Source: Escherichia phage A4
DNA: 64,000 bases
Reading direction: 5' to 3' (one strand)
Sequence record: ON286972
Shown here: positions 3 through 39,617 of the stretch, in pieces
Layout: every line of letters begins with the position of its first letter
Position numbering within the stretch: the stretch's first letter is position 1
The notes under the pieces: generated by a model
The model's database searches: none
The model's input: the letters and a program-made list of their open reading frames with translations, nothing else
What the model was told of the DNA's origin: nothing
Program-made: the position numbers and the translations under genes

Positions 3-239
3 TTGTTGGATGTTGAAATTGCATCATATACTGTCACAAATCAATACGTTATCGAAGATGAACTTCGCAACAAATTTGATATAACACTGTACAGTACTGA
101 AGAAGAGTTGTTTCAGTTAAGTACTATCAGTGATGTGTGCACAACTGTCGAAGAGTTAGCAGACGTTAAGAAAATTATTGACACTGTGTACAACAAGATA
201 TACAATACATTCCATATCGAGAAACAATTGAAAGGGTAA
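3..239 (+). CDS. hypothetical protein, EE-x-Y-F-Q motif family (probably 5'-truncated at window edge)
   Basis: ORF runs from window start; C-terminal TEEELFQLS motif shared with many paralogs. Confidence 0.5.
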   Translation: MLDVEIASYTVTNQYVIEDELRNKFDITLYSTEEELFQLSTISDVCTTVEELADVKKIIDTVYNKIYNTFHIEKQLKG

Positions 240-243
240 CACA

Positions 244-504
244 GTGACTACAGTAGTTCGTAAACGCCACATGATGAACATGGATGAATTCCGTACATTT
301 GACAAATATCGCACTATGTTTCGTATGCTGACACAGGGGCGACCAATTGTCATTGTAACAGAAAATTACATGTCACCGGAAATCATGTTTGGTAATTATG
401 AAAAGGTTTTCATGTTGTATGTGAAGCGTGGATTATTAACTATCAAGACCTTAGCAGAAGCAACTGATGAAGACATGGATGGTGATAACACATTCACTAT
501 GTGA
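244..504 (+). CDS. hypothetical protein
   Basis: ORF (GTG start in track) in same-strand gene train. Confidence 0.4.
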   Translation: MTTVVRKRHMMNMDEFRTFDKYRTMFRMLTQGRPIVIVTENYMSPEIMFGNYEKVFMLYVKRGLLTIKTLAEATDEDMDGDNTFTM

Positions 505-580
505 GGAACTATGAGCGAAAAACCAAAAGAACCATTAGACCGTGATGATGATTACTACGACGAACGTTATGGTGATAAAG

Positions 581-832
581 ATGAGTGAACATAGTGCAGT
601 ACTAAAAAAGATTTTAAATGATATGGGTAGTGAATTTGAAGTTTCAGACGAAGAATATGAATTTTGGAAAAAGGATTTTGAACAACTGTCCGAGAGTGAT
701 AAAGTGTTCAATATGATTGGTGTGGTCAGTCAGTACATATTAGGCGGTGGTCGTGCTAGTGCTTCAATCCTTGCATCGGCAATCATCTGTACTGCCCGAT
801 GGTGTCAAGAAAAAAGTATTGACGATTTCTAA
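581..832 (+). CDS. hypothetical protein
   Basis: ORF 542..832 trimmed to in-frame ATG (MSEHSAVLKK); start uncertain. Confidence 0.4.
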   Translation: MSEHSAVLKKILNDMGSEFEVSDEEYEFWKKDFEQLSESDKVFNMIGVVSQYILGGGRASASILASAIICTARWCQEKSIDDF

Positions 833-890
833 ATTAGGAGATATAATGTTTGTATCAGAGAGAAAGAATGTATAAGGAATTATATTTTGC

Positions 891-919
891 TTGACAATGG
901 AGCAATAATATTATACAAT
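891..919 (+). promoter_or_regulatory. sigma70-type promoter (TTGACA-N17-TACAAT)
   Basis: -35/-10 hexamers with 17-nt spacer about 200 nt upstream of methyltransferase gene. Confidence 0.4.
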
Positions 920-1066
920 TAATCAATCTTATACAACGAGGAAACTCCAATTGAAATATGTAATGATCCTTATCCCAGTGGGGTCATTCCATGAAATTCT
1001 ACCTACTGATGTACTGGATGGTCTTAAAAAGAGAAATCCACATAAGTTTTAAATAGTATTAAAAAG

Positions 1067-1094
1067 GACAATACTGGGCGAATATTCGTCCAGT
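1067..1094. promoter_or_regulatory. 28-bp near-perfect palindrome AATACTGGGCGAATATTCGTCCAGTATT (operator or leader hairpin)
   Basis: dyad symmetry followed by T-rich run, immediately upstream of the methyltransferase SD. Confidence 0.4.
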
Positions 1095-1118
1095 ATTTTA
1101 TTTTATAAAGGATTATAG

Positions 1119-3017
1119 ATGGAACCGATACGTGTACTATCACTATTCAATGGGATGAGTGTTGGGTATATGGCCTTGCAAAGTGCAGGAATACCAGTTG
1201 AAAAGTACTACTCATCTGAAATTGATAAATTTGCTATAGCTGAATCCCAGGCTAACTTTCCTGATATCATCCAATTGGGTGATGTAACTAGATGGAAAGA
1301 ATGGGATATCGAATGGGACAAGATAGATCTTCTGATGGGTGGTTTTCCTTGCTTCCCAGCAGGAACCATGATCATGACAAATGAAGGTCATAAAGATATA
1401 AAAGATATAAAAATTGGTGATATGGTTCTTACACACACTGGACAATACCAAAAAGTATTGAGTATTGGTAGCAAGATTGCACCAACAAGAATCATCACAG
1501 GTCAGGGACATATACCAATTGAATGCACTGATAATCATCCATTTTATGCGAGAAAAATGAGCAAGAAGTGGGATAATGAAAAACGACAATATGTTCGTGA
1601 ATATACAGAACCTACATGGATCGATGCACATGAACTCACAGAAGAACATGCTATATGTAATGTTCGTTGTAATGTGAATTTTCAACATAACAAGAGTGAA
1701 AGCTTTTGGTATTTCATGGGTAGATTTATGGGTGATGGATGGACTTACAAAGTAAAACGACAAAATAGAAAAAATAGTTATCAATATCGTGTTTTTATTT
1801 GCTGTGCTCATGATGAATTTGATGAATTGGTTTCATGTTTTGATGGTATGAATATGAAATATAATTTTGTTAAAGAAAGAACATCTTATAAATTCTATAT
1901 TTGTTCAAAAGAACTAGTTGAATTTTGTGAACAAATGGGTAAGGGTGCTTCAAATAAACAAGTACACCCCACACTTTTCACTGAAAGTATCGCTAATCAG
2001 AAAGCATTCATTGATGGTTATTTTGACGCAGATGGTCACCATGACAAGAAAGATGATTGTTTAAAATTTACATCAACATCAAAGAATGTTATTCTTGGTA
2101 TACAACAACTAATTATGAATGTGTATGGTCGTCATTCTAACATAACATACTTTAAACCGTCTGAAACAAAAGTTATAGAAGAACGTGTTGTTAATCAGAA
2201 GCCGTATTACGTATTAACATACAAAAAAGAAAAGCACCGAAAAGATGAAGCATTCTATGATGATGGGTCATATTCATGGGTAAAAGGTGTTAAATCGAAC
2301 ACCACAACCGGAGAATGGAAAACCGTTTACAATATTGAAGTTGCAGTAGATAACACATATACGGCGAACAATATTGTAGTTCATAACTGCCAAGCGTGGT
2401 CAGTTGCTGGGAAACAAGGCGGTGTGAATGATCCTCGTGGTATGTTATTCCATACAATGGTTGATATTTACCAGCACATAAAAAGTCTCAATCCTAACTT
2501 GAAAGTTCTTTTTGAGAATGTTAAGATGAAGGAAGATTTCAAGGATTATATCAATGGCGTGTTGGAAATGACACCAATTTTGATAAATTCACAAAATTAT
2601 ACAGCACATTATCGCCAACGTTACTACTGGTATAGCTCGGATAAGTTGTTTATTCCAAAACCTCTTATTTTAGCACCAAAATTACAAGATATACTAACTG
2701 GTAATTGGTATACTGATCGTGATAAATCATATTGCATTGACGCAAACTACTTCAAGGGTGGAGATCCGAATCAGTACTTCAATAAGTCAAGAAGACAAAT
2801 CGTTTTCAAAGACCCTGATATCAACAGGAACTTCCTGATTGAGAAGGGTAAACGAAATGTGGACTATCGTCATTTAACAGTACAAGAGTGTTGCATGTTG
2901 CAAGGAATTGATGTAAACTACTTCAAAGTTAGTAGTTCAACACAAGCGTACAAAATGCTTGGTAATGGCTGGACAGCACCTGTTATAGAACATTTACTAC
3001 GTGATATATTCTTTTAA
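1119..3017 (+). CDS. DNA (cytosine-5)-methyltransferase precursor interrupted by an intein
   Basis: N-extein ends ...LLMGGFP, C-extein starts CQAWSVAG (together motif IV GGFPCQ); ENV, RHLTVQECCMLQG and GNGW motifs in C-extein; SD AAGGA upstream. Confidence 0.85.
   Translation: MEPIRVLSLFNGMSVGYMALQSAGIPVEKYYSSEIDKFAIAESQANFPDIIQLGDVTRWKEWDIEWDKIDLLMGGFPCFPAGTMIMTNEGHKDIKDIKIGDMVLTHTGQYQKVLSIGSKIAPTRIITGQGHIPIECTDNHPFYARKMSKKWDNEKRQYVREYTEPTWIDAHELTEEHAICNVRCNVNFQHNKSESFWYFMGRFMGDGWTYKVKRQNRKNSYQYRVFICCAHDEFDELVSCFDGMNMKYNFVKERTSYKFYICSKELVEFCEQMGKGASNKQVHPTLFTESIANQKAFIDGYFDADGHHDKKDDCLKFTSTSKNVILGIQQLIMNVYGRHSNITYFKPSETKVIEERVVNQKPYYVLTYKKEKHRKDEAFYDDGSYSWVKGVKSNTTTGEWKTVYNIEVAVDNTYTANNIVVHNCQAWSVAGKQGGVNDPRGMLFHTMVDIYQHIKSLNPNLKVLFENVKMKEDFKDYINGVLEMTPILINSQNYTAHYRQRYYWYSSDKLFIPKPLILAPKLQDILTGNWYTDRDKSYCIDANYFKGGDPNQYFNKSRRQIVFKDPDINRNFLIEKGKRNVDYRHLTVQECCMLQGIDVNYFKVSSSTQAYKMLGNGWTAPVIEHLLRDIFF
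1350..2387 (+). mobile_element. intein (346 aa) with LAGLIDADG homing-endonuclease domain
   Basis: starts CFPAGTMIM, TDNHPF (block B), two LAGLIDADG-like motifs (FMGRFMGDGW, FIDGYFDADGH), ends NNIVVHN followed by Cys +1. Confidence 0.8.
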
Positions 3018-3032: not shown

Positions 3033-4417
<1,385 letters not shown>

Positions 4418-4421
<4 letters not shown>

Positions 4422-4861
4422 CAGTACTGCACCAATTAAAGAAAGTTAAACATCCGGTAGTTTATAATGATTGGCTACGCCAGAAGGAGATGGGGGACTT
4501 TTACTACCCAAAGTCTAAAGTACTGGCAACGTCAAAAACTATATACCTGAAATATAACGATGAAGATTGTTTGTGTATTCAAATGGGATTCCATCCTAAA
4601 GTTGGATTGTTTACATCAAATCAAACATTTTATAAATTTAGAATTCAAAAAGATACATTTAGTATTCACATTGAAAAGCATGACGTAGAAGATACAATAT
4701 ATCGTGTGGAAAGTGAGCCTTTGAATCTTGTTGGGATTCCGTACAATAATTTAGAAGAAATGTACTTTCAGCAGTTGACAATACAAGAAGACTTTGGTAT
4801 GATAGGACTTCAAGAGTTAGAGATGATTAAACAAATTCGTGATATCTACTTTAAGGAGTAA
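4418..4861 (+). CDS. hypothetical protein, EE-x-Y-F-Q family (EEMYFQQ)
   Basis: track ORF starts with TTG; ATG at 4418 overlaps upstream stop (ATGA). Confidence 0.55.
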
Positions 4862-9118: not shown

Positions 9119-9511
9119 ATGACTGATACTGACTTACAAAAACTCATTGATTACATCTATGAAATGGTTCAAGATAAAAACAATATAAATTACATAGCTT
9201 CCGGCTCAAAACCAATTGGAAATGTAATGACATATTCTTTGTCTTTGTGGTTACATCAGTACTATAAGGTTGATTGTGTGTATTATCGCCCAGATATCAA
9301 TGCATTTTATTTTGTGAACCCAGCAGTATTGTTTGACCGAACAAAGAAGCTTCCAGATGATGAATCATTTATACCTAGTCCATTCTATGTATCCGAATCA
9401 GACGAAGACGAGTTCCAAAAAAATACTTCTTTAGAGCGTGATGCGGGATGTATCCCTTATAAACTCAAAGATAAAATTGATTTCATTGTAGAAGTTATGA
9501 AAACATGTTGA
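9119..9511 (+). CDS. hypothetical protein (DEDEFQK variant motif)
   Basis: ATG ORF with AAGGA SD. Confidence 0.55.
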   Translation: MTDTDLQKLIDYIYEMVQDKNNINYIASGSKPIGNVMTYSLSLWLHQYYKVDCVYYRPDINAFYFVNPAVLFDRTKKLPDDESFIPSPFYVSESDEDEFQKNTSLERDAGCIPYKLKDKIDFIVEVMKTC

Positions 9512-9561: not shown

Positions 9562-10131
9562 ATGAACTTTATTAAATTCAACACATATGAGTCAGAAGCA
9601 TACTTTAATACAAATAATAAATTTAATATTATTCTTAAAGACGGAACGGTTGTTATCGGAGTATCATTGCTTTCATTTGATGGCGAAAAACTCAAAACTG
9701 TTTATAAATTCACCAATCTTGATGGTGATTACTGGGATACGTCAGATGTATCTAAAATTTGCACACATTATGTATTTGAATCTATTGAAGTTGGTGATGG
9801 CTGGGCATTGACCTGTAATGGTAATAAAGTATTTTCTGGTAACATATTTGGAGTAATTTCCAGTAAAGAAATCGTAGACCATCATCTTCATGTTCTCAAT
9901 AATAACGCCAACACTTATACACCTGATAATATCAAAATTCACGATATTGTAACATACACTGATTATAATGGTTTCAGACATAAAGCAATCGTAACTGAAG
10001 TTAAAAAACCAAAAAATTATTTCGACCACGGTTTAATTGAAGTATATATGGTAGGTGGCGAAAAACAATACTTTGATCATTTCACTTATACTGGTTGGGA
10101 TAGATTCCTAACCGTTATTGAGGAATACTAA
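9562..10131 (+). CDS. hypothetical protein
   Basis: ATG ORF with AAGGAG SD. Confidence 0.6.
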   Translation: MNFIKFNTYESEAYFNTNNKFNIILKDGTVVIGVSLLSFDGEKLKTVYKFTNLDGDYWDTSDVSKICTHYVFESIEVGDGWALTCNGNKVFSGNIFGVISSKEIVDHHLHVLNNNANTYTPDNIKIHDIVTYTDYNGFRHKAIVTEVKKPKNYFDHGLIEVYMVGGEKQYFDHFTYTGWDRFLTVIEEY

Positions 10132-10132
10132 C

Positions 10133-10609
10133 ATGCCGATTCGTGGTGTGCCAGAACCATTAAGTGAAGTTCTTAAGAATGTCAATGTTGGAACACGAGA
10201 AGTTAATCAGCGACGTGGTAATATATATTACTTTAAAACTACAGGAATGAGTTCTATACAGGTTGTTATTGGCACATCTATTACGGTCACGCGTGTTCTT
10301 GATGGTAGTACTGACTTCGTTGGATACAATGTACTTACTAATAAAGTAACACATACATATAAATGGAGTGGTTATAAAACCATCACATATGAGTTTGACT
10401 TAGCTAGAACTGAAGAAGAACGATTTATGTTGAGTACTATTAATCCAGCAAACTATCCTGACCTTGATGCATTTTTGCTAATTTTAAAATTGTATAATGA
10501 AGCAAATGAGAAAGCTAAAGAGTATGATAGAATCATGTATGAACGTAGAAAAGAACGTTCTCAAAAAAGTTATGATCTGTATGAAAGTTACATTCATAGA
10601 TCCAAATGA
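10133..10609 (+). CDS. hypothetical protein
   Basis: track ORF starts TTG; ATG at 10133 after GAGGAA SD. Confidence 0.5.
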   Translation: MPIRGVPEPLSEVLKNVNVGTREVNQRRGNIYYFKTTGMSSIQVVIGTSITVTRVLDGSTDFVGYNVLTNKVTHTYKWSGYKTITYEFDLARTEEERFMLSTINPANYPDLDAFLLILKLYNEANEKAKEYDRIMYERRKERSQKSYDLYESYIHRSK

Positions 10610-10647: not shown

Positions 10648-10998
10648 ATGTTTAAAAGTAATCTTAAAGTAGAATTAATTAATAACGAAGGTCAACGTTG
10701 GAAAGTTCTAGAAGATCTAGAATACGAGTATAACGGTATTAAAATTGTTGTTCCCGCAGGTTTCAAAACTGATTTTGCAAGCGTCCCACGTATTCGTGGT
10801 ATATTTGAACTAGTCGGTAATATGGGTCACGCCGCAGCAACAATACATGACTACTTGTATAGTACTGGTATGCTATCCCGTAAAGATAGTGATAAGGTGC
10901 TACTACAGGCTCTACGTGCTACTGAAGTTGGTAAGCCACGTAGTATGATTATGTATGCTGGTGTTCGTGTATTCGGTTGGTTGTTTTACAAAAAATAA
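10648..10998 (+). CDS. conserved phage protein with GFKTDFASVP motif (resembles DUF1353-type proteins; from memory)
   Basis: ATG ORF, SD AAGGAG; motif recalled from memory, not searched. Confidence 0.5.
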   Translation: MFKSNLKVELINNEGQRWKVLEDLEYEYNGIKIVVPAGFKTDFASVPRIRGIFELVGNMGHAAATIHDYLYSTGMLSRKDSDKVLLQALRATEVGKPRSMIMYAGVRVFGWLFYKK

Positions 10999-11267: not shown

Positions 11268-11453
11268 ATGACACTAGATGAATGGCATAAAAGAAACGAT
11301 AAACTGTATGAAAATGATATTTTCTTCTTCGCATTCGGTGGTCTTGGAAGTATTTTACGTGATAGTGATGATTATTACAATTCGATCATTAGCTATTATG
11401 ATTGCTATGGGACTATGTACGCTATAGCACGAACAACGGGATGTTACACATGA
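11268..11453 (+). CDS. small protein, MT-x-x-EW family (MTLDEWHK)
   Basis: ATG ORF; N-terminus related to MTHEEWL paralogs. Confidence 0.45.
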   Translation: MTLDEWHKRNDKLYENDIFFFAFGGLGSILRDSDDYYNSIISYYDCYGTMYAIARTTGCYT

Positions 11454-11632
11454 CACATCAAGAATGGTTAGATGAATTAAAATTCAAACATGATCATTTT
11501 GGCTTTGGTGTACGCCAGGGTCATTATGATATTTTAAAAGATAAGAACAAGTTCAAATCATTTGTCTTGGATGAGGATAGTAATCGCTGGTTCATCTATG
11601 AGCTTGCGGTTAGAGGTAAAAAAATTGACTAG
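11450..11632 (+). CDS. small protein, MTHEEWL family
   Basis: ATG overlapping upstream stop (ATGA); MTHQEWLDELKFKHDHFG...GHYDIL. Confidence 0.5.
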   Translation: MTHQEWLDELKFKHDHFGFGVRQGHYDILKDKNKFKSFVLDEDSNRWFIYELAVRGKKID

Positions 11633-11677: not shown

Positions 11678-12177
11678 ATGCTCATTACGCATGTACCGGA
11701 AAGTATTACTGAAATTTTAAATAAAATTAATGTTAATGAGTTTGAACGAACAGTTCGAAAACAGGGTACTTATCACTATAAGCACAAAGATGGTGATCAT
11801 CAAATAAGCTTAGATCAGAATTATCAAACTCTAACAATTAAAATGGTTACTCGTTGGAATTTTGTTCGTAAAGACACTATTATCTGTGATTTTGGTAAAA
11901 GTCTACTTAGAAAATGTTTCTCTGAAACAAATGGTATCTATCCAAACCCGAATAGAATTTTTACATATCGATACATCACAGATGAAGATGCACATTTCCA
12001 AGAGAGCTTGGTATGCGATAATAAGTACTTTCCCGCATTTTCTGATAATTTGAAATTAAAAGAACTATATGACTATTTCTTGAATGACAATATCCTGTGG
12101 GATGAAGAATTAAAAAAACGACAGATAGAACGTGAAAAGAAAAAAGTATGGACTGGCTCACATTGGATGCAACGTAA

Positions 12178-12181
<4 letters not shown>
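11678..12181 (+). CDS. hypothetical protein (DEDAHFQES variant motif)
   Basis: ATG ORF with CAGGAG SD. Confidence 0.55.
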
Positions 12182-12671
<490 letters not shown>

Positions 12672-12688: not shown

Positions 12689-13067
<379 letters not shown>

Positions 13068-13068
13068 C

Positions 13069-14083
<1,015 letters not shown>

Positions 14084-14086
14084 TTC

Positions 14087-14242
<156 letters not shown>

Positions 14243-14270
14243 CAAAACGAAATGATAATAGGAAATTAAA

Positions 14271-14456
14271 ATGCAACTTTTAATTCTTTCAATATTGTAT
14301 ATTATTATAATGGTTCCTATATCAATACGTTTAATTATACTTGAACGATTTTTATCGAAACATGGAAATAGATCTATGATATTTGTACCAATCGGGCTTA
14401 TATTGTTTGGTATATTTGCATTTATAATGGGAATTAACGCTACATTCATTTCATAG
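14271..14456 (+). CDS. small membrane protein
   Basis: ATG ORF with AGGAAA SD; two hydrophobic helices. Confidence 0.5.
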   Translation: MQLLILSILYIIIMVPISIRLIILERFLSKHGNRSMIFVPIGLILFGIFAFIMGINATFIS

Positions 14457-14465
14457 GAAACAAAT

Positions 14466-14947
<482 letters not shown>

Positions 14948-14954
14948 AAGAACG

Positions 14955-14987
<33 letters not shown>

Positions 14988-14988
14988 C

Positions 14989-15044
<56 letters not shown>

Positions 15045-15045
15045 T

Positions 15046-15231
<186 letters not shown>

Positions 15232-15295
15232 TCATTGAATGGGGTGTATTATGGTTCAAGAAGAAAACTGGGGTTTTTAACCTAACGAGGTCAAT

Positions 15296-15438
<143 letters not shown>

Positions 15439-15439
15439 A

Positions 15440-15570
<131 letters not shown>

Positions 15571-15571
15571 T

Positions 15572-16006
<435 letters not shown>

Positions 16007-16014
<8 letters not shown>

Positions 16015-16378
16015 TCTAATAGTACGTATAATGCAAGATGTTCGAAAGAACCTTTATACAGGCAATTTTGACGATTCGAACATTAAACTATTATGTTATG
16101 ATGGTTTTACCTTGGTACATCCATCTGAATCAAATAATATATACATATCATATACTTCCAAAAATCAATTATATCAATTATATCAATTTGATATATATAG
16201 CACAATGGCTAAAATAACTTTGGACGTATCCAAGCAGCCTATCCTTATCGCTGTACCAGAATGCAATTACACTGAAGAATCACTGTTTCAGTACTCAATG
16301 ATAAATGACATTGGCGACTTGACATTAGAAGAGATTAACGCTATACTAGATGTATCACGTTTGATTAATGCCTACTAA
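16007..16378 (+). CDS. hypothetical protein, EE-x-Y-F-Q family (TEESLFQYS)
   Basis: ATG ORF overlapping upstream stop; C-terminal tail similar to 15577 gene. Confidence 0.5.
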
Positions 16379-16391
16379 TTTGGAGATTAAT

Positions 16392-16583
16392 ATGTTCTGG
16401 AATTTGTTATGTCTTTTTGGTCGTACCTTTGTTCTTGCAATTATCCATACACCAGGTATTCGTAATTTTGTTTCTTATGAATTTAAGAAAAATTATCACA
16501 ACAATACTGAAGTTCGTGCCACTAAAATGTGCAAAGACTTCAATGTAACAGTACCACCATTTAAGAAGTACGAGGATGAATAA
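16392..16583 (+). CDS. small hypothetical protein
   Basis: track ORF 16368..16583 trimmed to ATG after GGAG SD. Confidence 0.4.
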   Translation: MFWNLLCLFGRTFVLAIIHTPGIRNFVSYEFKKNYHNNTEVRATKMCKDFNVTVPPFKKYEDE

Positions 16584-16861
16584 TGGAATTCATTGTAGCT
16601 CCTGAAGAACTCAAGACCTTTAAGTTCAAAGATAATTATACGTATTCAAATCATTCCTTGAATTCAATTCATGTAATTGCAATGGTTGCATCTGAATATA
16701 AAGATAACCCGTGTATTGATTTTAAAACCACTGATGGTGAATATACATGGGTGATCCCACGAGATAAATATAGTTATCAAGGGGCAGTAGAAATTCGTGA
16801 CTCGATTCTAAAACAAATCGAAGATGGACATACTCATCCTAAACTAAACATTCAGTACTGA
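16583..16861 (+). CDS. hypothetical protein
   Basis: ATG overlapping upstream stop, SD GAGGA. Confidence 0.5.
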   Translation: MEFIVAPEELKTFKFKDNYTYSNHSLNSIHVIAMVASEYKDNPCIDFKTTDGEYTWVIPRDKYSYQGAVEIRDSILKQIEDGHTHPKLNIQY

Positions 16862-17111
16862 AAATGTTATACCGATAGCTTCTGGAGCAGTACTGAATCC
16901 TCCTTTTTCTTTCAGAAGCTATCACATATTTTGTCGTAAAATGGTACTGTGAGTGGTTTGTCTTTCCATTCTCTCCAGGTCCAGTACCTATCATTGTAGT
17001 TCTGGAGAGATATAACATGTATAATGTTTTTTACCTCCTGTTTATCATTATATATGTCACTAAACGAGTAATAACTACCCTCCCTCTAGGTTATTACTTT
17101 TGATTTTGGTA

Positions 17112-17140
17112 TTGACTTTCAATGCCGCAAATGTTATACT
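17112..17140 (+). promoter_or_regulatory. sigma70-type promoter (TTGACT-N17-TATACT)
   Basis: hexamers in 330-bp noncoding region upstream of gene 17191. Confidence 0.45.
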
Positions 17141-17143
17141 TAA

Positions 17144-17172
17144 GGCTGATTCAAATTGAATCGGCCTTTTTT
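17144..17172 (+). terminator. terminator-like hairpin in 5' leader (GGCTGATTCAAATTGAATCGGCC + T-run), possible attenuator
   Basis: hairpin plus TTTTTTCTTTTT between promoter -10 and the SD of gene 17191. Confidence 0.4.
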
Positions 17173-17190
17173 CTTTTTAAGGAGAACACC

Positions 17191-17586
17191 ATGAATTTGG
17201 TTGTAGAAGACGATATCTTTTCCGATGCTATTGAGTATATGTACAATCTTGTTAGACTTAATGAATTTGTACAACGTCATACATTGACACATAAGGATGG
17301 GATTATTACTGTTGGTGCATACATTAATGGATACTTAACCGAGTTTTACAATTGTGATAACATTTTTATAACCATTGATAACATCACTACGACTAATGAC
17401 ATATCCATTGATTTATTCAAAGATCATATTGAAATTGATATAGACAAGATGATTGCCATCGATATCGATCCTGTAATGTATGAGTTACAAGAAGAAATGT
17501 ATGAGCAATTATGCTTTGTGTATGATTTGAGTAAAATTTCATTCTTTGACTTACGCAGAATCTGTTACGTAGTAGGTAAGTTATGA
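17191..17586 (+). CDS. hypothetical protein
   Basis: track ORF 17122..17586 trimmed to ATG after AAGGAG SD. Confidence 0.5.
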   Translation: MNLVVEDDIFSDAIEYMYNLVRLNEFVQRHTLTHKDGIITVGAYINGYLTEFYNCDNIFITIDNITTTNDISIDLFKDHIEIDIDKMIAIDIDPVMYELQEEMYEQLCFVYDLSKISFFDLRRICYVVGKL

Positions 17587-20867: not shown

Positions 20868-20868
20868 T

Positions 20869-21210
20869 ATGGATTTAAGCTCAACAATTAATTTTTTGAG
20901 TGATAATTACGAAAAGGTCATATCAAGGGGTGGTATTATTATCCACCCTGTAACAAATGAAATGTTCATGGTTCGCTTTGATGCAAATTCATATGACCAA
21001 GTACTTGTAATATCACAATTTATCGATTATAATGAAGTTGTTCAATTTTGCTGTACTGAATTCGGAATCTATCTTAAAGATGCGGAAACTAATGAGATTG
21101 GTCATTACTTATATCAAACTCTGATGGTTACTCTAGATTTTGGACTTACTTTCGAAAATCTGGTACAATGTCACTATATGTTTAAAAACTTTCCCGCGTC
21201 TGGGAATTAA
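20869..21210 (+). CDS. hypothetical protein
   Basis: track ORF 20821..21210 trimmed to ATG after CGAGG SD. Confidence 0.5.
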   Translation: MDLSSTINFLSDNYEKVISRGGIIIHPVTNEMFMVRFDANSYDQVLVISQFIDYNEVVQFCCTEFGIYLKDAETNEIGHYLYQTLMVTLDFGLTFENLVQCHYMFKNFPASGN

Positions 21211-21220
21211 TGGAGTTCAA

Positions 21221-22063
21221 ATGTCAAACATTATCGTATTCAAAACTGTATCATTCAATAAAGATCTTTATTCTCATTCTTATGTGTCTTCCAATAATCT
21301 CATCATTGAGTTGACAAATGGGGCAACGTTGGCGGTAGAATTCGATTCTAGTATTGAATCTAACGCTGCACTAAAAGAACTAGCAATGGTATTAAATGGT
21401 GAACCAGTAAACAAATCCAAACCAACTGATGGGTTGGATATGTTGGTCAATAAGATCCTAAATGGCAAATCTTCTGAAATTGTTGAACTTCTTAAAAATT
21501 GTACTGATAAAATCACTGAAACTGTTAGTACTGCAAAATCTAAGGCTGAAGATAAGCTTTATGAAGAAGCATTTAAAGTCGTGGGGGCCGCAGCAGAATC
21601 TAAGTTAAATGGTATGATTAATAATCTTGACCAAGTGCTGTCTCATATGTTCACAAAAGAATATGAAACTGAAGAACCTGAATCCCAAGAACAACCTTCC
21701 AAAAAAGAAGATGTAAAATCTAAAGTGAAATCCGCATTTACTGGTGCTAAAAAGAAATTTGGTCTATCTGAAGATATCTTTGGATATTCTGATACCACAG
21801 CACAAACCGATGATGATTCACAGTCAGATGATATTCTGATTGGTGATATGCTTGATCGCCAGTTGCGTGCTGAAATTTCAGCATTCGTTGACAGTGTTGT
21901 TAGTTCTGAACGTGCACAAGATATGTTCGAAAGTATCAGTAAGAATTTTGGTGAAGAAGAATCGAAAGCTGCTATTGATGGATTTAAAAATCTAATTTAT
22001 TCCGTTGCAGTGCAGCACCAAGATAAAACATTAGAATATGTGATTCGCAATTACTTTATGTAA
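21221..22063 (+). CDS. hypothetical acidic protein
   Basis: track ORF 21140..22063 trimmed to ATG after GGAG SD; followed by bidirectional terminator. Confidence 0.55.
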   Translation: MSNIIVFKTVSFNKDLYSHSYVSSNNLIIELTNGATLAVEFDSSIESNAALKELAMVLNGEPVNKSKPTDGLDMLVNKILNGKSSEIVELLKNCTDKITETVSTAKSKAEDKLYEEAFKVVGAAAESKLNGMINNLDQVLSHMFTKEYETEEPESQEQPSKKEDVKSKVKSAFTGAKKKFGLSEDIFGYSDTTAQTDDDSQSDDILIGDMLDRQLRAEISAFVDSVVSSERAQDMFESISKNFGEEESKAAIDGFKNLIYSVAVQHQDKTLEYVIRNYFM

Positions 22064-22071: not shown

Positions 22072-22100
22072 AAAAAGCCTCCATATGGAGGCTTTTTTTA
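22072..22100. terminator. bidirectional rho-independent terminator between convergent genes
   Basis: hairpin AAAGCCTCC-ATAT-GGAGGCTTT flanked by A-run and T-run. Confidence 0.65.
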
Positions 22101-23255
22101 TTGTTTGTCATAACCAATCACTACAATCTTAGCATCAAATGCTTCGACAGAAGTAATTGTAACATTCTCATCATCATCAAGCTGAATTTCACATTGAACT
22201 GCATCATTGTTAATATCATATACTTGAACAAAAACAAATTCTTTCAAGTGTCCAGTACTGGATATATTAATTTCATACATTTCACCATTGCGTGTCCATT
22301 CAGAAGAAGAGACATTTTGTACATATGGAGATGTTTGTAATGTACTACCCAATATACTTAGTTTTATAGGTGTATTATCATATATTGTTACTGTAATATC
22401 ACCAGTGGAGCTAACATTAATGCCAGCAGATACCAAATTATTATGATTATCATATACCTGAATAGCTAAGTTATTACCACGCCCATGTACATCACCAGGG
22501 ATTCTTGCACTATACACATCACCAGGCCCAGTACTGAATGTAGTTACTGATACAGTAGTGGTAAAGCCGTCATCATCACCAACATCTAATATATTAAAAT
22601 TAACGCTTTTTGTATTATAAAAATCAGACGTAAGAGTTATAGTTGCAGTTCCGGTTGACATAATTTCCGGTACTGTTATAATGAATTCATCATTGACTAT
22701 TGTACTCGTTGAATACTCGGACCCATCTGAAAATTTTACAGTAATTGTCATTCCTGTTGTGTTGATGGTTTGTCCAGCATTGAACAGTTTACCCGATATT
22801 TCAGTATCCCCAACATGAACCGGATTAACTAAAATATTATCTATATCACGATCAATAATTGAACAAGTTGGTGTGTACATATCAAAAGTAACATCGGAGT
22901 TTCCAAATATCGTTTTGTGTAATTGGAATTTAGTTACAAACCCTGTTGGATCTGTAGGTTTCAATTGATTAGTGTATCCACGAACAAAGAAAGTATTCTT
23001 TGCAATAACATCCAATAATTCATCATCGGATTTTTTATAGTTAAGTAAATTTCCTACCTTATCATAAGAAGTAATTTGTACGCGTCTATATATTTTGTTT
23101 GTTACAGGATCTATAATATCAAATAGTTTATAACTACGCTGTCTGTAAATTCTTATATTTTTTAATTTGGTTCCATCGATTAGTAAAGCACCATCCACGA
23201 TATAACCACATTCACCGAACTTGTATTCTCCGGCATCAGCTATGGTTCTAGACAT
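22098..23255 (-). CDS. beta-rich, Thr/Ser-rich protein (candidate virion/structural protein)
   Basis: 385-aa minus-strand ORF with GAGGGG SD, isolated among + strand genes; composition typical of fibre/Ig-like domains (inference). Confidence 0.6.
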   Translation of the reverse strand: MSRTIADAGEYKFGECGYIVDGALLIDGTKLKNIRIYRQRSYKLFDIIDPVTNKIYRRVQITSYDKVGNLLNYKKSDDELLDVIAKNTFFVRGYTNQLKPTDPTGFVTKFQLHKTIFGNSDVTFDMYTPTCSIIDRDIDNILVNPVHVGDTEISGKLFNAGQTINTTGMTITVKFSDGSEYSTSTIVNDEFIITVPEIMSTGTATITLTSDFYNTKSVNFNILDVGDDDGFTTTVSVTTFSTGPGDVYSARIPGDVHGRGNNLAIQVYDNHNNLVSAGINVSSTGDITVTIYDNTPIKLSILGSTLQTSPYVQNVSSSEWTRNGEMYEINISSTGHLKEFVFVQVYDINNDAVQCEIQLDDDENVTITSVEAFDAKIVVIGYDKQ

Positions 23256-28408: not shown

Positions 28409-29371
28409 GTGAAGAAACTAGACTTAAACGCAATTTCCGAAGAAGTACTGGATGAATGTTTTGCGAATGAAGAAGTCAATCCATTGGAAGCAATTGAACC
28501 ATCAGAAGTTATTGAAGATGATATTCCACATAAAGTTCGTAGTAAAAGTAACATTAGTCTCAAGCGTCCAGTAGGTGTGACTAATGAATCCATCATCGAA
28601 GAGATTCGTGCTGGAATTAATGTAAAAAAGAACACTGACCTATTACTTCGTTATAACTATGGTATGATCGTTGATGTTGCTTCAAAGTGTACATGTTATA
28701 TTCCGTTTGAAGATAAAATTGCATATGGTGTAGAAGGTTTTATGCGAGCACTTAAAACCTTTGATCTTAGTAAGAATGTCAAATTCATTACATATGCAAC
28801 AACGTCCGTTTATATGACTATGTATAATGAAAGTTCAGATGCAAATTACATGGTGTACTTACCACGTTATATGAGCGTTCATAACATCCAAGTACGTCGA
28901 TTTAATGAATCATATCAACGTGAACACGGTAAGCGACCTACACCAGAATTAATCTCTGAGAGTACTGGTATCGAGCTTCAGCACGTTAAGAACTGTTTGT
29001 TATACCAGAATGCATATACGACTCTTGATGCACAACTGGGTTCAGATTCAGACGGAACCCTTGGGGATATTCTGAGTTCATCTGCTCGTGATTATAACCT
29101 TAATGTTGATAGCATTTGTAATCCATTACGTTATGCAATCACAGAAATCATTGACGAATTGAGTACTAAAGAACGAGAAATTATCATGCGTGTTCATGGT
29201 CTTGGGGATTACAAAGCAGAAACCCTTCGTGAAATTTCTGATAATGGATATGTTGATGATAAAGGAAACATTGTTAAGTCCCGTTCATCTGTGCACCGAA
29301 AATATAGTGAAGCTATTCAAAAGCTTAAAAAAATAGTACTTGAAAAAGGGTACGAATACGAAGATTTCTAA
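28409..29371 (+). CDS. sigma-70 family RNA polymerase sigma factor
   Basis: region 2-like LLLRYNYGMIVDVA...GVEGFMRALKTFD...KFITYATTSVYM and region 4-like HTH TKEREIIMRVHGLG...TLREIS; GTG start after AGGAG SD. Confidence 0.75.
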   Translation: MKKLDLNAISEEVLDECFANEEVNPLEAIEPSEVIEDDIPHKVRSKSNISLKRPVGVTNESIIEEIRAGINVKKNTDLLLRYNYGMIVDVASKCTCYIPFEDKIAYGVEGFMRALKTFDLSKNVKFITYATTSVYMTMYNESSDANYMVYLPRYMSVHNIQVRRFNESYQREHGKRPTPELISESTGIELQHVKNCLLYQNAYTTLDAQLGSDSDGTLGDILSSSARDYNLNVDSICNPLRYAITEIIDELSTKEREIIMRVHGLGDYKAETLREISDNGYVDDKGNIVKSRSSVHRKYSEAIQKLKKIVLEKGYEYEDF

Positions 29372-33316: not shown

Positions 33317-33517
33317 ATGTTTACTTTATATCTAGCTGTAGTACTAACAAATGGTGAAATCACACGTACATTCGGTGATGGTGTATATAAAACACCTGAG
33401 CAGTGTTATTCTGCGACACACTGGCCTCGTGATGCTGGTGACGAAACTCGTACCGAATACAAATGTATGAAGGTCAAAGGTGACTTTGTTAACCTTAAGG
33501 TCATTGAGGTGAAGTAG
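33317..33517 (+). CDS. small secreted/membrane protein
   Basis: ATG ORF, N-terminal hydrophobic stretch. Confidence 0.5.
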   Translation: MFTLYLAVVLTNGEITRTFGDGVYKTPEQCYSATHWPRDAGDETRTEYKCMKVKGDFVNLKVIEVK

Positions 33518-34023
33518 TGAATCTTAGTACTGATAAGTTTGTAAAGTTCATAGAGTTTATCAATTTCAATGAGAGCTACAATGGTACGTACAATACTATG
33601 AATATTGTATCTGATAAAGTATTTGATAGTACAATGTTCTATTTGTATGATACAAACGGTGATAAGCTGTGTGATGTTACATTCGGTATTGGTGATCTTT
33701 TTGAATCTGCGGTTTATCTATCTAAACCAACGGTGCGTGATACATATGAAATTCACTTTCATAATAGACCGAATCACAAAAACATTGTAGAATATGATAT
33801 ACCATCATCACACGAACTGTTCATTGTAGATTACAGTACTGAAGAGGGTGTATTTCAAAGTTCATTGCTATACAACTTTGAACTACACGATCCTGATATT
33901 CCTAAAGTACTGGCAATTTCGAATAAGGTATGTGAATTGCCATATAACATATACATGTCAGTTCCTGGTAAAAGAGTAGGTAATTTCTGTAAAGCCTTTG
34001 ACATACAAGCGGATGATAAATGA
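33517..34023 (+). CDS. hypothetical protein, EE-x-Y-F-Q family (TEEGVFQSS)
   Basis: GTG start after GAGGTGAAG SD. Confidence 0.5.
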   Translation: MNLSTDKFVKFIEFINFNESYNGTYNTMNIVSDKVFDSTMFYLYDTNGDKLCDVTFGIGDLFESAVYLSKPTVRDTYEIHFHNRPNHKNIVEYDIPSSHELFIVDYSTEEGVFQSSLLYNFELHDPDIPKVLAISNKVCELPYNIYMSVPGKRVGNFCKAFDIQADDK

Positions 34024-36162: not shown

Positions 36163-36528
36163 ATGGGAAAGCTTACAATTATAATAGCCATGATAATGGC
36201 ACTTAATGTTATGCCAGTTGAAGCTAACGAGGACGTTGCGTGGTTCGATTGCATAGGAAATGATGGACAGTGGCATACGTTTTCCAGTGATCCATATAAT
36301 GGTACTGATATACTAATAGATGGTGAAAATTATCGTTTTGTTAGTGAAAGTAAAATTGGCAACAAAAAGGTATCGACATTTAGAACTGATTCTGGTATAA
36401 TTGCTAATGTCATAATGATAGTTGATCCTGAAAATAATACAGGGGATATATATGTAGTGGTTTACCGTGATCATTCCAATAAAAGAAGTCTGGATCTTGA
36501 TAAACTTCATTTACATTGTCAAATATAA
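36163..36528 (+). CDS. secreted protein (signal peptide)
   Basis: N-terminal MGKLTIIIAMIMALNVMPVEA; SD GAGG. Confidence 0.55.
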   Translation: MGKLTIIIAMIMALNVMPVEANEDVAWFDCIGNDGQWHTFSSDPYNGTDILIDGENYRFVSESKIGNKKVSTFRTDSGIIANVIMIVDPENNTGDIYVVVYRDHSNKRSLDLDKLHLHCQI

Positions 36529-36542: not shown

Positions 36543-36917
36543 ATGTTCAATAGTATCATTGGGTTCTCATTAGTACTTCCACAAATCATTTTTGGTATTT
36601 GTTTTGTAACTTTTATGATGGGGTCAATCTATGGTATATGGTATTACATTTTAAAACAATCAGATGGAATCATTTTAAAAATAACAATGCATTTTGATGT
36701 GGATTCACCAGCATGGAATTCATCTATTATTACCAATACATTGTATTTTATGATGATCATTTTGGAACAATTGGGATTTGTATCTAATAGTAATGTTTCT
36801 ATGACCGCAGGTATGGCAAGTATTTGTTGTTTGTGGTATATTGTTTATAAGATTGATGTGTTGTATAATATGTATCGTGAAATGGTATTGAACAGAGATA
36901 TGCAGAGGAAAAAATGA
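36543..36917 (+). CDS. multi-pass membrane protein
   Basis: ATG ORF; hydrophobic helices. Confidence 0.5.
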   Translation: MFNSIIGFSLVLPQIIFGICFVTFMMGSIYGIWYYILKQSDGIILKITMHFDVDSPAWNSSIITNTLYFMMIILEQLGFVSNSNVSMTAGMASICCLWYIVYKIDVLYNMYREMVLNRDMQRKK

Positions 36918-37267
36918 TGAAAGTTATATTATTTTTTATGTGTATTATTATGTGTGGTGTCTCTTATGCTGCACCCTTAGCCGGATTGCTTTGTAAAGAG
37001 AATTCTGAACAACACATATTCCAAGGGGATTCAGATGACCTTGATATCATTTACATCGATGGTACTGAATATACATACGTTAAAGACCATACTGTTGGTG
37101 ATATCAGTTTCACTGAATATGCAAAAACAGGTGACACTGATTATAGAGCCTACCTTCAAGTGAATATGATAGAGGGTGAAGACGGAACACAAGAAGTCAA
37201 ACTCGTACTTAAACGTATTGGAGATAAGGAGGCTGATTTTGGAGGTGAGTGTACATATGATGATTGA
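36914..37267 (+). CDS. secreted protein (signal peptide)
   Basis: ATGA overlap; N-terminal MMKVILFFMCIIMCGVSYA. Confidence 0.55.
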   Translation: MMKVILFFMCIIMCGVSYAAPLAGLLCKENSEQHIFQGDSDDLDIIYIDGTEYTYVKDHTVGDISFTEYAKTGDTDYRAYLQVNMIEGEDGTQEVKLVLKRIGDKEADFGGECTYDD

Positions 37268-37275: not shown

Positions 37276-37308
37276 GGTTGACTAACGTCAGCCTTTTTTG
37301 TTATACTG
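37276..37308 (+). terminator. terminator-promoter stem-loop cassette (stem contains TTGACT; T-run; then TATACT)
   Basis: GGTTGAC-TAAC-GTCAGCC TTTTTTG TTATACT; TTGACT to TATACT spacing 18. Confidence 0.6.
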
Positions 37309-37316
37309 ATCCCAAT

Positions 37317-37442
37317 ATGCTTGCATTTCTTCAAGTTGATGTATATGAAGAAAGTAATGGCGAACAGTATGTTAAACTTGTGATGATGCGTAAGGCAGCA
37401 AAACAGGCAACATTCGGTGGCTTGTGTAAATATGAGGACTAA
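37317..37442 (+). pseudogene. 41-codon ORF paralogous to the C-terminus of gene 36914..37267 (partial duplicate)
   Basis: LQVDVYEESNGEQYVKLVMMRKAAKQATFGGLCKYED vs LQVNMIEGEDGTQEVKLVLKRIGDKEADFGGECTYDD; directly after cassette. Confidence 0.45.
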
Positions 37443-37664: not shown

Positions 37665-37693
37665 CATTTCATCTACTACTGGGGATTTTAATT

Positions 37694-38134
37694 ATGTATG
37701 TATATCGTTTTGAACTTAAATTCAGTTATATTGAACCTAACTTAGATCCTGCAAAAACAGTAGGACCGTTCGCACGGTACTCTTCGCGATACAGTACTAA
37801 AAATGGATTTGAACGTTTGTGTATGACTACACCTTCGCAATTCCAACCTGAGCCAACTGAAGATGGGATATATTCAATCAAACGTGGCTGGGTATTTGGT
37901 TGTCAGAGTTTGAATGATTTGTTTAAGTTCTTTACTATGGACTTGGGTAAATTACATCGTGCAGGGTTCGCTGTATCAGTATATGAAGTTCCTGATAACC
38001 ATGTAGACATTGGACATAACCAAGTGCAGTACTATTGTGGTAGTGCAAAACTACTTCGTATTATGTCAGTAAAGGAAGCTAAAGAAGAATTTCGTGCTAC
38101 AAGATTTAATAAGGAAGAGATGGCATATGAATAA
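37694..38134 (+). CDS. hypothetical protein
   Basis: ATG ORF downstream of cassette. Confidence 0.55.
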   Translation: MYVYRFELKFSYIEPNLDPAKTVGPFARYSSRYSTKNGFERLCMTTPSQFQPEPTEDGIYSIKRGWVFGCQSLNDLFKFFTMDLGKLHRAGFAVSVYEVPDNHVDIGHNQVQYYCGSAKLLRIMSVKEAKEEFRATRFNKEEMAYE

Positions 38135-38483
38135 AACATCAACACGATTTGCAAAGTACTTGAGTTATGAAATACCACAAGATCCGTATTTCGACCAACG
38201 TGACGATGAAGATTACATAAAGTTAACTCGTGAACTACGAAATAAGTTCCAACAGATTTTAAGTTCATACACTAATACACATCCACATTTAAAGTACTTC
38301 ATTAAGGCAGATATAGATTCAGATGATTCTGAACTATCATTCCTTGAATACACAGTTGAGTGTGTTGGGTATGTACCTGATAATAGTGTAATTAATCACA
38401 ACAAAATAAAGTTCGACTTGTACGTTATTTGTGTTATAATGAACTTAATTGCACAAATGAACAACTATTCAATAGGGGATTAA
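38127..38483 (+). CDS. hypothetical protein
   Basis: track ORF 38094..38483 trimmed to ATG after AAGGAAGAG SD. Confidence 0.5.
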   Translation: MNKTSTRFAKYLSYEIPQDPYFDQRDDEDYIKLTRELRNKFQQILSSYTNTHPHLKYFIKADIDSDDSELSFLEYTVECVGYVPDNSVINHNKIKFDLYVICVIMNLIAQMNNYSIGD

Positions 38484-38747
38484 ATGAAACTGAAATTGAA
38501 CTATCATGGTTTTCGTCTGCGTGATGATGTGGAGTTCCTTCGTCGCACACCAGGTGCTGAATTGTTTTTAACTGAAATGGGTGTCCCATTTAAAGTCGAG
38601 CACATTGGTGACAATGACTGCCTGGTATATGATAATCAACCAGATATCAACGTTCCGTGGTATTCTGAACATATGTACATTGATATGGCGGCTCGCTACA
38701 ACTGTACGTTTGAAATTACATCTAAAGGTATTGCTATTCAATTCTAA
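38484..38747 (+). CDS. hypothetical protein
   Basis: ATG ORF with AGGGGA SD. Confidence 0.5.
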   Translation: MKLKLNYHGFRLRDDVEFLRRTPGAELFLTEMGVPFKVEHIGDNDCLVYDNQPDINVPWYSEHMYIDMAARYNCTFEITSKGIAIQF

Positions 38748-38768
38748 TAGTCTGATGGACACGAGTAA

Positions 38769-38993
38769 ATGAAATACATGCTGGTGGCATTAATGTTTGT
38801 GAGCACTATAGTACAGGCCAGAATCAAGTACTTTGTGAAGTGTACAAACGTTAGCGGTGGCTACACAGAGACATATCAGGGTAAGTCGGTTAAGATGGCA
38901 ATACACAATGATAGAGGAACAGTGATTTTCCTTGTGAATGATATAATCATTTTGTACAAACCAGATGTACCATGTGAAGTAAAAAGATATTAA
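38769..38993 (+). CDS. secreted small protein (signal peptide)
   Basis: N-terminal MKYMLVALMFVSTIVQA. Confidence 0.55.
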   Translation: MKYMLVALMFVSTIVQARIKYFVKCTNVSGGYTETYQGKSVKMAIHNDRGTVIFLVNDIIILYKPDVPCEVKRY

Positions 38994-38999
38994 ACTACG

Positions 39000-39030
39000 G
39001 GGTTGACATAAGTCAGCCCTTTTGTATAAT
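39000..39030 (+). terminator. terminator-promoter stem-loop cassette
   Basis: GGGTTGAC-ATAA-GTCAGCCC TTTTG TATAAT. Confidence 0.6.
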
Positions 39031-39038
39031 GGTGACTT

Positions 39039-39617
39039 ATGAACCGTAAAGGTAAGTTTAAAGTATCAAAGAAGAATAAAAGTGGAAGGTTCAATGATAT
39101 ATGCTTAGGTTTTATCAAAGCACACAATAAACTTTCTGCCCTGAGTAGAAAGATAGTATCTAACAAGATTGATATTAGATATATAAGTACTAACAATAGT
39201 ACAGGGAAAGATGCACATCCAACTGAAAATATTATTTCAGTATCCTTCGTATACGATGGTCTGGACATTACGATAGATGATTACAGACGATACGGTACTG
39301 GGTTTATACGTATCTATTGCAGAGATGCATCTGATAAGCCGGAACGTATTCGTATTATCGGTACATTGAGTGCTGGTATATTTGAGTGGGAGATTGTTCA
39401 ACTTAAAACTATCGATGAGTACACCACAAGTTCTAATATTATTGAGTTGAATTGCAATGTGAAAGACCTCCCAAACTTGAGCGAAGAAGAATATTTTCAA
39501 GAAAGCTTGCTAACGCCAAATTTGGATGATATAATTAAACAATATAAGACGATGGTGTACTTCTTCAAATGTATCAAACCTAAGACTTGTTTGATGAATA
39601 TTGTCCGTGATCTATAA
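39039..39617 (+). CDS. hypothetical protein, EE-x-Y-F-Q family (SEEEYFQES)
   Basis: ATG ORF just downstream of cassette. Confidence 0.55.
   Translation: MNRKGKFKVSKKNKSGRFNDICLGFIKAHNKLSALSRKIVSNKIDIRYISTNNSTGKDAHPTENIISVSFVYDGLDITIDDYRRYGTGFIRIYCRDASDKPERIRIIGTLSAGIFEWEIVQLKTIDEYTTSSNIIELNCNVKDLPNLSEEEYFQESLLTPNLDDIIKQYKTMVYFFKCIKPKTCLMNIVRDL

Follow-up and report, generated by a model that had tools for sequence, protein, structure and literature searches.

Roughly 550 genes are found in jumbo phages related to RaK2 and PBECO4, and about 83% of them are without an assigned function (PMC7247149). The stretch analysed here (the window) comprises 64,000 nucleotides (nt) of Escherichia phage A4, sequence record ON286972. 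It is DNA of a PBECO4/121Q/RaK2-like jumbo phage, a relative of Asteriusvirus. Its first 40 kb form a plus-strand array of small open reading frames (ORFs) with six transfer RNA (tRNA) genes interspersed. The array is syntenic with gp030c-gp136c of phage phAPEC6, whose annotation is hypothetical almost throughout. Within this array lies a family of small proteins sharing a C-proximal motif of the type T-E-E-x-Y-F-Q. An initial annotation, made from the letters alone, had pointed to such a family, and the family is real: 12 ORFs carry the strict motif [ED][ED]x[YFLVMH]FQ where it had been placed, all on the plus strand, and 13 are robust members according to a profile hidden Markov model (HMM). 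This model, built from the C-proximal module, was refined in successive rounds with sequences from the window, from seven related phage loci and from 92 database proteins, and converged at 159 sequences; the 13 ORFs score with E values from 5e-16 to 3e-7.

All members lie on the plus strand. The first enters the window as the C-terminal 78 amino acids (3-239) of a gene starting before it, with the motif TEEELFQLSTISD at nt 96-134 (HMM E 4e-11); its full-length orthologue, P0016, has 140 amino acids and an identical tail. It is followed by 3578-4054 (158 amino acids, motif at nt 3923-3961, E 8e-10; PHROG 21500, unknown function), 4406-4861 (151 amino acids, LEEMYFQQLTIQE at nt 4751-4789, E 2e-9; PHROG 23719) and the basic protein of 11678-12181 (167 amino acids, DEDAHFQESLVCD at nt 11981-12019, E 3e-8). 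The member at 13084-13437 (117 amino acids, TEEEYFQMSTVQE at nt 13330-13368, E 2e-11) has been modelled with AlphaFold, as has 16007-16378 (123 amino acids, TEESLFQYSMIND at nt 16271-16309, E 5e-16). The latter stands in tandem with 15577-16014 (145 amino acids, TEEKFFQYCLVNN at nt 15886-15924, E 4e-13), and the two proteins align across 116 amino acids. Further downstream are 17583-18056 (157 amino acids, SEEEYFQESLIND at nt 17934-17972, E 3e-10), 18053-18472 (139 amino acids, TEEEYFQDSTVKD at nt 18359-18397, E 1e-10; PHROG 24027), 18454-18921 (155 amino acids, TEEQYFQIQTLHD at nt 18805-18843, E 7e-13) and 19471-19935 (154 amino acids, SDESYFQMQVAYD at nt 19810-19848, E 3e-10). The last two are 33517-34023 (168 amino acids, TEEGVFQSSLLYN at nt 33838-33876, E 3e-7) and the basic 39039-39617 (192 amino acids, SEEEYFQESLLTP at nt 39480-39518, E 3e-7; PHROG 33518).

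Three ORFs missing from the initial annotation are probably further members, judging from their sequences. The product of 10118-10609 (163 amino acids, basic, E 0.03) carries TEEERFMLSTINP at nt 10409-10447, with M in place of Q; it is a full-length paralogue of 11678 by BLAST, and PHROG 22160 is common to both. The second, 17122-17586 (154 amino acids, E 0.07), has a degenerate motif, QEEMYEQLCFVYD, at nt 17488-17526, and belongs to PHROG 35192, which 18454 cross-matches. In the third, 20821-21210 (129 amino acids; PHROG 26435), the match is limited to the tail (E 0.004): the E-E-x-x-F-Q part is gone (IGHYLYQTLMVTL) and the tail LTFENLVQCHYMF, which corresponds to the third predicted helix described below, is retained. 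The weaker variants first proposed were borne out by the HMM at 3578 and 11678. Two others, 9119 (E above 5) and 13518 (E 0.93), were rejected. These two ORFs, 9119-9511 and 13518-13961 on the plus strand, have S-x-E-D-E-F-Q-K-x-T in common about 30 residues before the C-terminus and show no mutual BLAST match. They may be a sister group related very remotely to the family, or the resemblance may be a coincidence. As listed, the start of 13518 overlaps a tRNA-Gly gene (13471-13546), and Met23 is probably the true start. The description of the family as acidic holds for 12 of 15 members, with a median isoelectric point of 4.65 compared with 6.06 for neighbouring ORFs, and fails for the basic proteins 10118, 11678 and 39039.

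When the residues of the same ORFs were shuffled in 500 trials, the strict motif turned up 0.15 times on average and never more than twice, compared with the 12 occurrences observed, and it was absent from more than 100 spurious minus-strand ORFs. The similarity is thus not merely compositional, an objection that had been raised together with the original proposal. Alignment of 144 distinct modules gave the consensus [LSY]-[TS]-E-E-x-[YFLH]-F-Q-x-S-[TL]-[VIL]-x-D-[LFI]-x-x-[LFI]-[TS]-[FYL]-E-[DE]-[IL]. In these modules the Phe is present in 100%, the two Glu in 93% and 86%, the Gln in 92%, the Ser in 88% and the Asp in 76%, and the two Thr/Ser positions have the profiles T64 S20 D8 N5 and T47 S14 D8. 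Codons at the conserved positions vary synonymously (Gln CAG in eight and CAA in five cases, Phe TTT in ten and TTC in three), and the conserved Ser is written with both AGY and TCN codons. This variation, with Ser drawn from both of its codon families, indicates that selection acts at the protein level and does not preserve a signal embedded in the DNA.

The distribution of the family was followed at several levels. With a 37-residue consensus, tblastn matched 57 of 50,697 phage records, from phages of Escherichia, Salmonella, Klebsiella, Cronobacter, Pectobacterium, Erwinia and one of Xanthomonas. Two shorter records of 86 and 94 kb aside, those listed and checked belong to RaK2-like phages with genomes of 310-386 kb. 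The family HMM counted 10-11 members in a RaK2 locus, 4-5 in CBB and 11 each in Munch and EJP2. In phAPEC6, the sole complete relative scanned (125 of 353 kb), the syntenic 50 kb yielded 17-18 members, and another 75 kb, which holds replication genes and RCC1 genes, yielded none. When 1.84 billion representative proteins were scanned exhaustively with HMMER, 83 clusters (defined at 50% identity) were returned at E up to 1e-3, one of them a repetitive false positive, leaving about 82 true ones. One of these clusters is located on a metagenome contig of 359,777 bp, within a similar array of small ORFs. A single-protein search with 16007 gave only orthologues of at least 70% identity, and a word-indexed search with the module alignment found one protein and was uninformative. 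As far as these sequence searches reach, the family is confined to RaK2-like jumbo phages.

Close nucleotide relatives are unevenly spread along the array. A megablast search with 13000-20000 matched 51 phage records, all of them jumbo phages of Escherichia, Salmonella, Klebsiella and Erwinia. The best matches, with 86-90% identity, are the Asteriusvirus genomes BAU.Micro_ELP-22, PBECO4, G17 and phAPEC6; they span the first 3.9 kb alone, and because they stop there, 16.9-20 kb of the window is left without a close nucleotide match in any phage record. Indeed, no match of at least 85% was found among the 50,697 phage records for 16900-20000, which holds the members from 17122 to 19935. The genes of this segment have protein-level orthologues in metagenome and run assemblies. 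The segment is a strain-variable hotspot.

The initial annotation had not recognised the family, and database comparisons agree with this: no known domain with an assigned function was found by HMM search. The best Pfam matches had E values of 0.02-0.15 and 12-15 bits against cut-offs of 26-28, and none was significant; NCBIfam gave one non-significant match (E 0.056), PADLOC none to any member, and a profile search of PDB sequences a best E of 0.064, not significant. PHROGs spreads the members of the window over at least 11 families of unknown function; those with member orthologues are 17453, 34619, 24027, 28118, 33518, 23719, 21500, 22160, 35192, 26435 and 30548. Cross-matches between them are limited to the C-terminal 30-50 residues, with E values from 1e-3 to 1e-7; the families are left ununited there, and neither the superfamily relationship nor a common fold is recorded. 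The searchable literature on CBB, phAPEC6, Sharanji and fEgEco12 does not mention the family, and members in CBB are labelled just "conserved hypothetical protein" in the supplementary text of that genome. On this evidence the family has so far gone undescribed, and no relatives of it can be detected.

The position of the module is fixed. The median start of the motif is residue 101 (range 80-153), and the tail behind it has a median length of 41 residues. In all of the approximately 82 database clusters, the proteins have 64-222 amino acids with the module 28-86 residues from the C-terminus, and the module was never found there alone, at the N-terminus or within a larger protein. The parts in front of it had been called unrelated, and they are unalignable indeed. 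BLAST with these N-parts alone divided 157 members into 98 clusters, and hhalign joined only two of 66 cluster pairs at E below 1e-3, compared with 0 of 66 reversed controls. Homology of the N-parts is therefore undemonstrated beyond the pair 16007/15577 and one other pair, and the case for a common fold rests on structure prediction. AlphaFold2 models were obtained for 16007, with a predicted local distance difference test score (pLDDT) of 87 and a predicted template modelling score (pTM) of 0.81, and for 13084 (pLDDT 92.1, pTM 0.83). Their N-parts cannot be aligned with each other, yet the order of elements is equal: a helix (residues 4-15 in 16007 and 3-14 in 13084), five strands, a second helix (90-99 and 84-93) and a third (107-117 and 100-116). 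The T-E-E-x-x-F-Q-x-S block forms helix 2 in both models, with a block pLDDT of 89-96, and the second conserved block forms helix 3. The predicted loop between them measures 6-7 residues, and the protein ends 3-10 residues past helix 3.

The fixed geometry and the equal element order of the two models argue for a single small domain instead of a shuffled module. The suggestion that a common C-terminal module had been fused to diverse N-domains is thus not supported, given the single C-proximal layout in the database clusters and the agreement of the two models, which predict the same topology for proteins with unalignable N-parts. The family is better described as one predicted single-domain fold in which the first two thirds have changed so far that sequence comparison no longer recognises them. 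Foldseek searches against BFVD gave full-length matches with template modelling (TM) scores of 0.5-0.77 at identities of 11-29%. These matches are uncharacterised proteins of phages UB, CBB, RaK2 and related jumbo phages, and no named protein was matched in BFVD.

The members are under purifying selection and turn over faster than neighbouring genes. The ratio of nonsynonymous to synonymous substitutions (dN/dS, Nei-Gojobori method) was estimated for orthologues of 15577 and 16007 in six phages. Whole-gene values were 0.44 and 0.17, respectively, compared with 0.15 and 0.10 for two adjacent genes outside the family. Divided by region, 15577 gave 0.53 for the N-part and 0.26 for the C-module, and 16007 gave 0.19 and 0.13, so that the C-module changes at about half the rate of the N-part. 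These values imply that the genes are functional and constrained, with an N-part that is relaxed or adaptive. A phAPEC6 counterpart of at least 40% identity is missing for nine of 16 members and for 17 of 74 neighbouring genes (Fisher p = 0.013). The syntenic phAPEC6 gene of 33517 is only 27.5% identical, compared with 91% for the adjacent gene at 33317. In nine of ten syntenic pairs, conservation is higher in the C-module than in the N-part.

The array is also rich in promoter-like sites. Between positions 1 and 40000, 28 sites matching the sigma-70 consensus at 11 or more of 12 positions lie on the plus strand and none on the minus strand, compared with 1.8 expected from a first-order Markov model. 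Eight of the 28 are perfect, e.g., those at 23321, 26369, 30572, 31285, 35406, 35657 and 39003. Several plus-strand sites stand in front of members: a near-consensus site at 13025-13052 (TTGACT and TATAAT, 16-nt spacer) lies 32 nt upstream of 13084, a perfect one at 39003-39030 (TTGACA and TATAAT, 16-nt spacer) just upstream of 39039, and a near-consensus one at 15224-15252 upstream of a tRNA-Thr gene and the tandem pair 15577/16007. Promoter-like sites are found within the 3' coding ends of two family genes as well, at 16319-16347 and 4775-4803, where TTGACA is read as Leu-Thr. The position of these embedded sites varies relative to the motif, and its conservation is therefore not explained by them. 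A gene for a sigma-70 family factor with regions 2 and 3 detected (28409-29371, plus strand), 74% identical to phAPEC6 gp066c, sits in the middle of this promoter-dense region.

The region of CBB homologous to the array has been proposed to be early and transcribed by the host RNA polymerase (PMC5259590). The phAPEC6 members gp039c, 054c, 079c, 083c, 087c, 088c, 093c, 120c, 121c, 127c-132c and 134c are absent from the list of its 62 virion proteins (PMC7247149, Table 1), and the annotation of CBB does not list any of its members as structural. Taken together, the sigma-70-like sites, the proposal for CBB and the absence from the virion suggest early expression of proteins that are not part of the particle. 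Two genes inside this otherwise early-looking region, 21140-22063 (plus strand) and 22098-23255 (minus strand), have phAPEC6 orthologues that are virion proteins (gp078c and gp077, respectively); the second is the sole sizeable minus-strand gene of the first 40 kb.

These observations can be brought together in a proposal that is given about an even chance of being right: the members of this lineage-specific, expanded family would be early cytoplasmic binders of diverse host proteins, serving take-over or counter-defence, and would have a common fold. Tandem duplication has enlarged the family in the lineage of RaK2/PBECO4-like jumbo phages. Each member is predicted to be one small domain that begins with a helix, continues as a five-stranded antiparallel beta-meander and ends in two further helices. 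The segment [ST]-E-E-x-[YFLH]-F-Q-x-S-[TL]-[VIL]-x-D would provide helix 2, which is N-capped by Thr/Ser, acidic in its first turn and fitted with a Phe that never varies; the assignment of the conserved Thr/Ser positions as N-caps follows their residue profile and general helix-capping rules. The segment [LFI]-[TS]-[FYL]-E-[DE]-[IL] is predicted to open the amphipathic helix 3. Helices 1, 2 and 3 might form a constant layer on one face of the sheet, leaving the sheet and its loops free to diverge. Synthesis would start early from host sigma-70-type promoters, and the proteins would stay in the cell, outside the virion. They could then act as stoichiometric binders or putative inhibitors of different host proteins, and the number of paralogues and the divergence of the N-parts may reflect adaptation to different targets and hosts.

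Several points weigh against this proposal. Polar residues conserved above 85% in an otherwise unalignable family exceed the normal needs of helix capping, and this leaves room for explanations based on an adaptor or an oligomer. The common fold depends on two AlphaFold models, which were compared by element order and not superposed, and the alignments behind both models drew on both subfamilies. Among the orthologues of 15577 and 16007, dN/dS never exceeded 1, and an arms race is thus undemonstrated. Evidence for confinement to the early region covers 125 kb of one complete relative and is not genome-wide. The promoters were deduced from consensus matches alone, being missing from a virion proteome says little in the case of proteins of 13-20 kDa, and no Asteriusvirus transcriptome was found in the literature.

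The adaptor explanation, which is unlikely but the main rival, assumes that the hairpin of helices 2 and 3 docks onto one common machine of the host or phage, while the variable sheet recruits different targets. A host protease, RNA polymerase, the ribosome or a phage-encoded factor could be considered, at the same low level of confidence, as candidates for such a machine. The exposed-type residues of the module (the two Glu, Gln, Ser and Asp) keep the frequencies given above in proteins whose remainder is unalignable, the C-module exceeds the N-part in conservation in nearly all syntenic pairs, and its dN/dS is half that of the N-part. On the other hand, the N-cap-like profile of Thr/Ser together with Phe as a typical core residue means that a purely structural role accounts for much of the pattern. 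In its most specific version, somewhat more doubtful, the T-E-E-x-Y-F-Q-x-S hairpin would plug 15-25 target-recognition surfaces into one host or phage machine. If this were true, the family would be a phage counterpart of the F-box/PRANC-type substrate adaptors of eukaryotic viruses and would amount to a programmable early kit for "host-proteome editing", built on a fold without a solved relative. Adaptors of this kind would resemble poxvirus ankyrin-PRANC/F-box proteins or bacterial protease adaptors.

Another explanation, improbable on present evidence, takes the members as acidic oligomers similar to p32/MAM33, in which the helices would build acidic rings, as homo- or hetero-oligomers, acting as decoys or mimics for host proteins that bind nucleic acids or polycations. 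The doughnut-shaped p32 homotrimer has an asymmetric acidic surface. The p32 fold reportedly consists of an N-terminal helix, a seven-stranded antiparallel sheet and two C-terminal helices (Jiang et al. 1999), and this element order equals that predicted for the family, most of whose members are acidic (12 of 15). However, the predicted sheet has five strands instead of seven, the three basic members do not fit, and no match to the Pfam MAM33 model (PF02330) was obtained at E up to 1. Identity between the family and the p32/gC1qBP/MAM33 fold (PDB 1P32 family; hits 3qv0_A and 7te3_A) is 9-13%, and hhalign with a human p32 sequence gave a probability of 0.1%.

The motif also recalls a proteolytic site. 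The cleavage rule of the tobacco etch virus (TEV) protease is E-x-x-Y-x-Q/(S,G), and members of the TEEEYFQ/MS type fit it at P6, P3 and P1; cleavage of E-x-x-[YFL]-F-Q/x-S by a 3C/NIa(TEV)-like protease would free a tail of about 30 residues. This is very improbable, and the candidate was rejected. Tyr occupies P3 in just 36% of the members and the residue past Q is variable among the 144 distinct modules; the segment is confidently predicted to be a helix and not a linker, and the tail is itself conserved and amphipathic. In addition, the annotated proteases in the 125 kb of phAPEC6 and in its virion proteome are only a metallopeptidase and the prohead protease, so that no chymotrypsin-fold cysteine protease, as such sites would need, is annotated there. 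Hardly more credible is a role as DNA-binding regulators with helices 2 and 3 as a helix-turn-helix (HTH). The tail LTxEEIxAILxVS looks like sigma region 4 or an HTH in the subfamily of 16007, 18454 and 19471, a superficial resemblance that is missing in the subfamily of 13084, 17583 and 18053. No HTH or sigma model of Pfam was matched at E up to 1, the predicted inter-helix loop of 6-7 residues and an end 3-10 residues past helix 3 do not favour it, and strong acidity prevails among the members. An HTH would be expected to have a short turn, a recognition helix of 8 or more residues and a basic surface.

That the similarity arose by chance or from composition, the genome being AT-rich, or reflects an embedded DNA signal as the TTGACA hexamers (Leu-Thr) at 16319 and 4775 might suggest, can be practically discounted, being refuted by the shuffling and minus-strand controls, by the codon variation at every conserved residue, by the limitation of tblastn matches with the consensus peptide to this phage clade and by the varying position of the hexamers relative to the motif.

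Other phage and viral proteins offer points of comparison. The internal proteins IPI, IPII and IPIII of phage T4 have a common N-terminal capsid-targeting sequence of about 10 residues, which is cleaved by the prohead protease at L/I-x-E, and are packaged. Like them, the family consists of unrelated-looking small phage proteins with one short conserved peptide. Unlike them, its motif is C-proximal and helical and its members are absent from the phAPEC6 virion proteome. A capsid-targeting signal was accordingly rejected for the family, given the median motif start at residue 101 and the position of phAPEC6 members outside the virion list. Large viruses of eukaryotes possess accessory multigene families, such as the poxvirus ankyrin-PRANC/F-box proteins and MGF110/360 of African swine fever virus (ASFV). 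The phage family shares with these the many tandem paralogues per genome, a repertoire varying between strains and a short conserved C-proximal element on a fast-diverging body. It differs in its bacterial host, in the lack of any sequence or fold relationship, and in a variable part that is a portion of the same small fold and not a repeat domain.

Lineage-specific multigene families of small early proteins are familiar in large viruses, and no new mechanism is demonstrated here. The analysis unites at least 16 genes of the window (and 18 in the syntenic 50 kb of phAPEC6), previously scattered over at least 11 PHROGs, in one family that is recognised by its motif, has a confident fold model and is likely to be expressed early, so that an anonymous block of ORFs becomes a tractable experimental set in phages that are under development for therapy. 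If the conserved helices serve as a common docking surface, they would represent a new way for phages to diversify interference with the host; if they are the folding core alone, the family would still be a new small scaffold tolerating extreme sequence change.

Additional paralogous groups were noticed in the window. A second, smaller family of 54-76 amino acids is encoded on the plus strand at 11402-11632, 12178-12354, 12689-12853 and 12820-13014, interleaved with tRNA genes, with pairwise BLAST E values from 1e-24 to 2e-4. Three mutually paralogous ORFs are located at 36163-36528, 36914-37267 and 37278-37442 (plus strand). The first two have hydrophobic N-termini resembling signal peptides, and the products are probably exported or periplasmic. 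On the minus strand, 53210-64000 contains eight paralogous genes for proteins of 344-472 amino acids with RCC1-like repeats, the last one cut by the end of the window, and 51217-53241 encodes a 674-amino-acid relative of this array. The phAPEC6 orthologues of the array (gp001-gp010) are virion-associated "DNA condensation" proteins.

Two individual genes among the small ORFs have recognisable domains. The product of 10648-10998 (plus strand) is a DUF1353 protein (PF07087, E 2e-23), which is present in CBB as CBB_456 and has no counterpart in the syntenic region of phAPEC6. The gene at 1119-3017 (plus strand) encodes a C-5 cytosine DNA methyltransferase (PF00145) whose sequence is split by an intein carrying Hint and LAGLIDADG domains. 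The intein is inserted at the catalytic GFPC/CQ motif (...GGFP/CFPAGTMI...VVHN/CQAWS..., slashes marking the junctions), and the phAPEC6 homologue of this gene, gp123c (861 nt), is intein-free.

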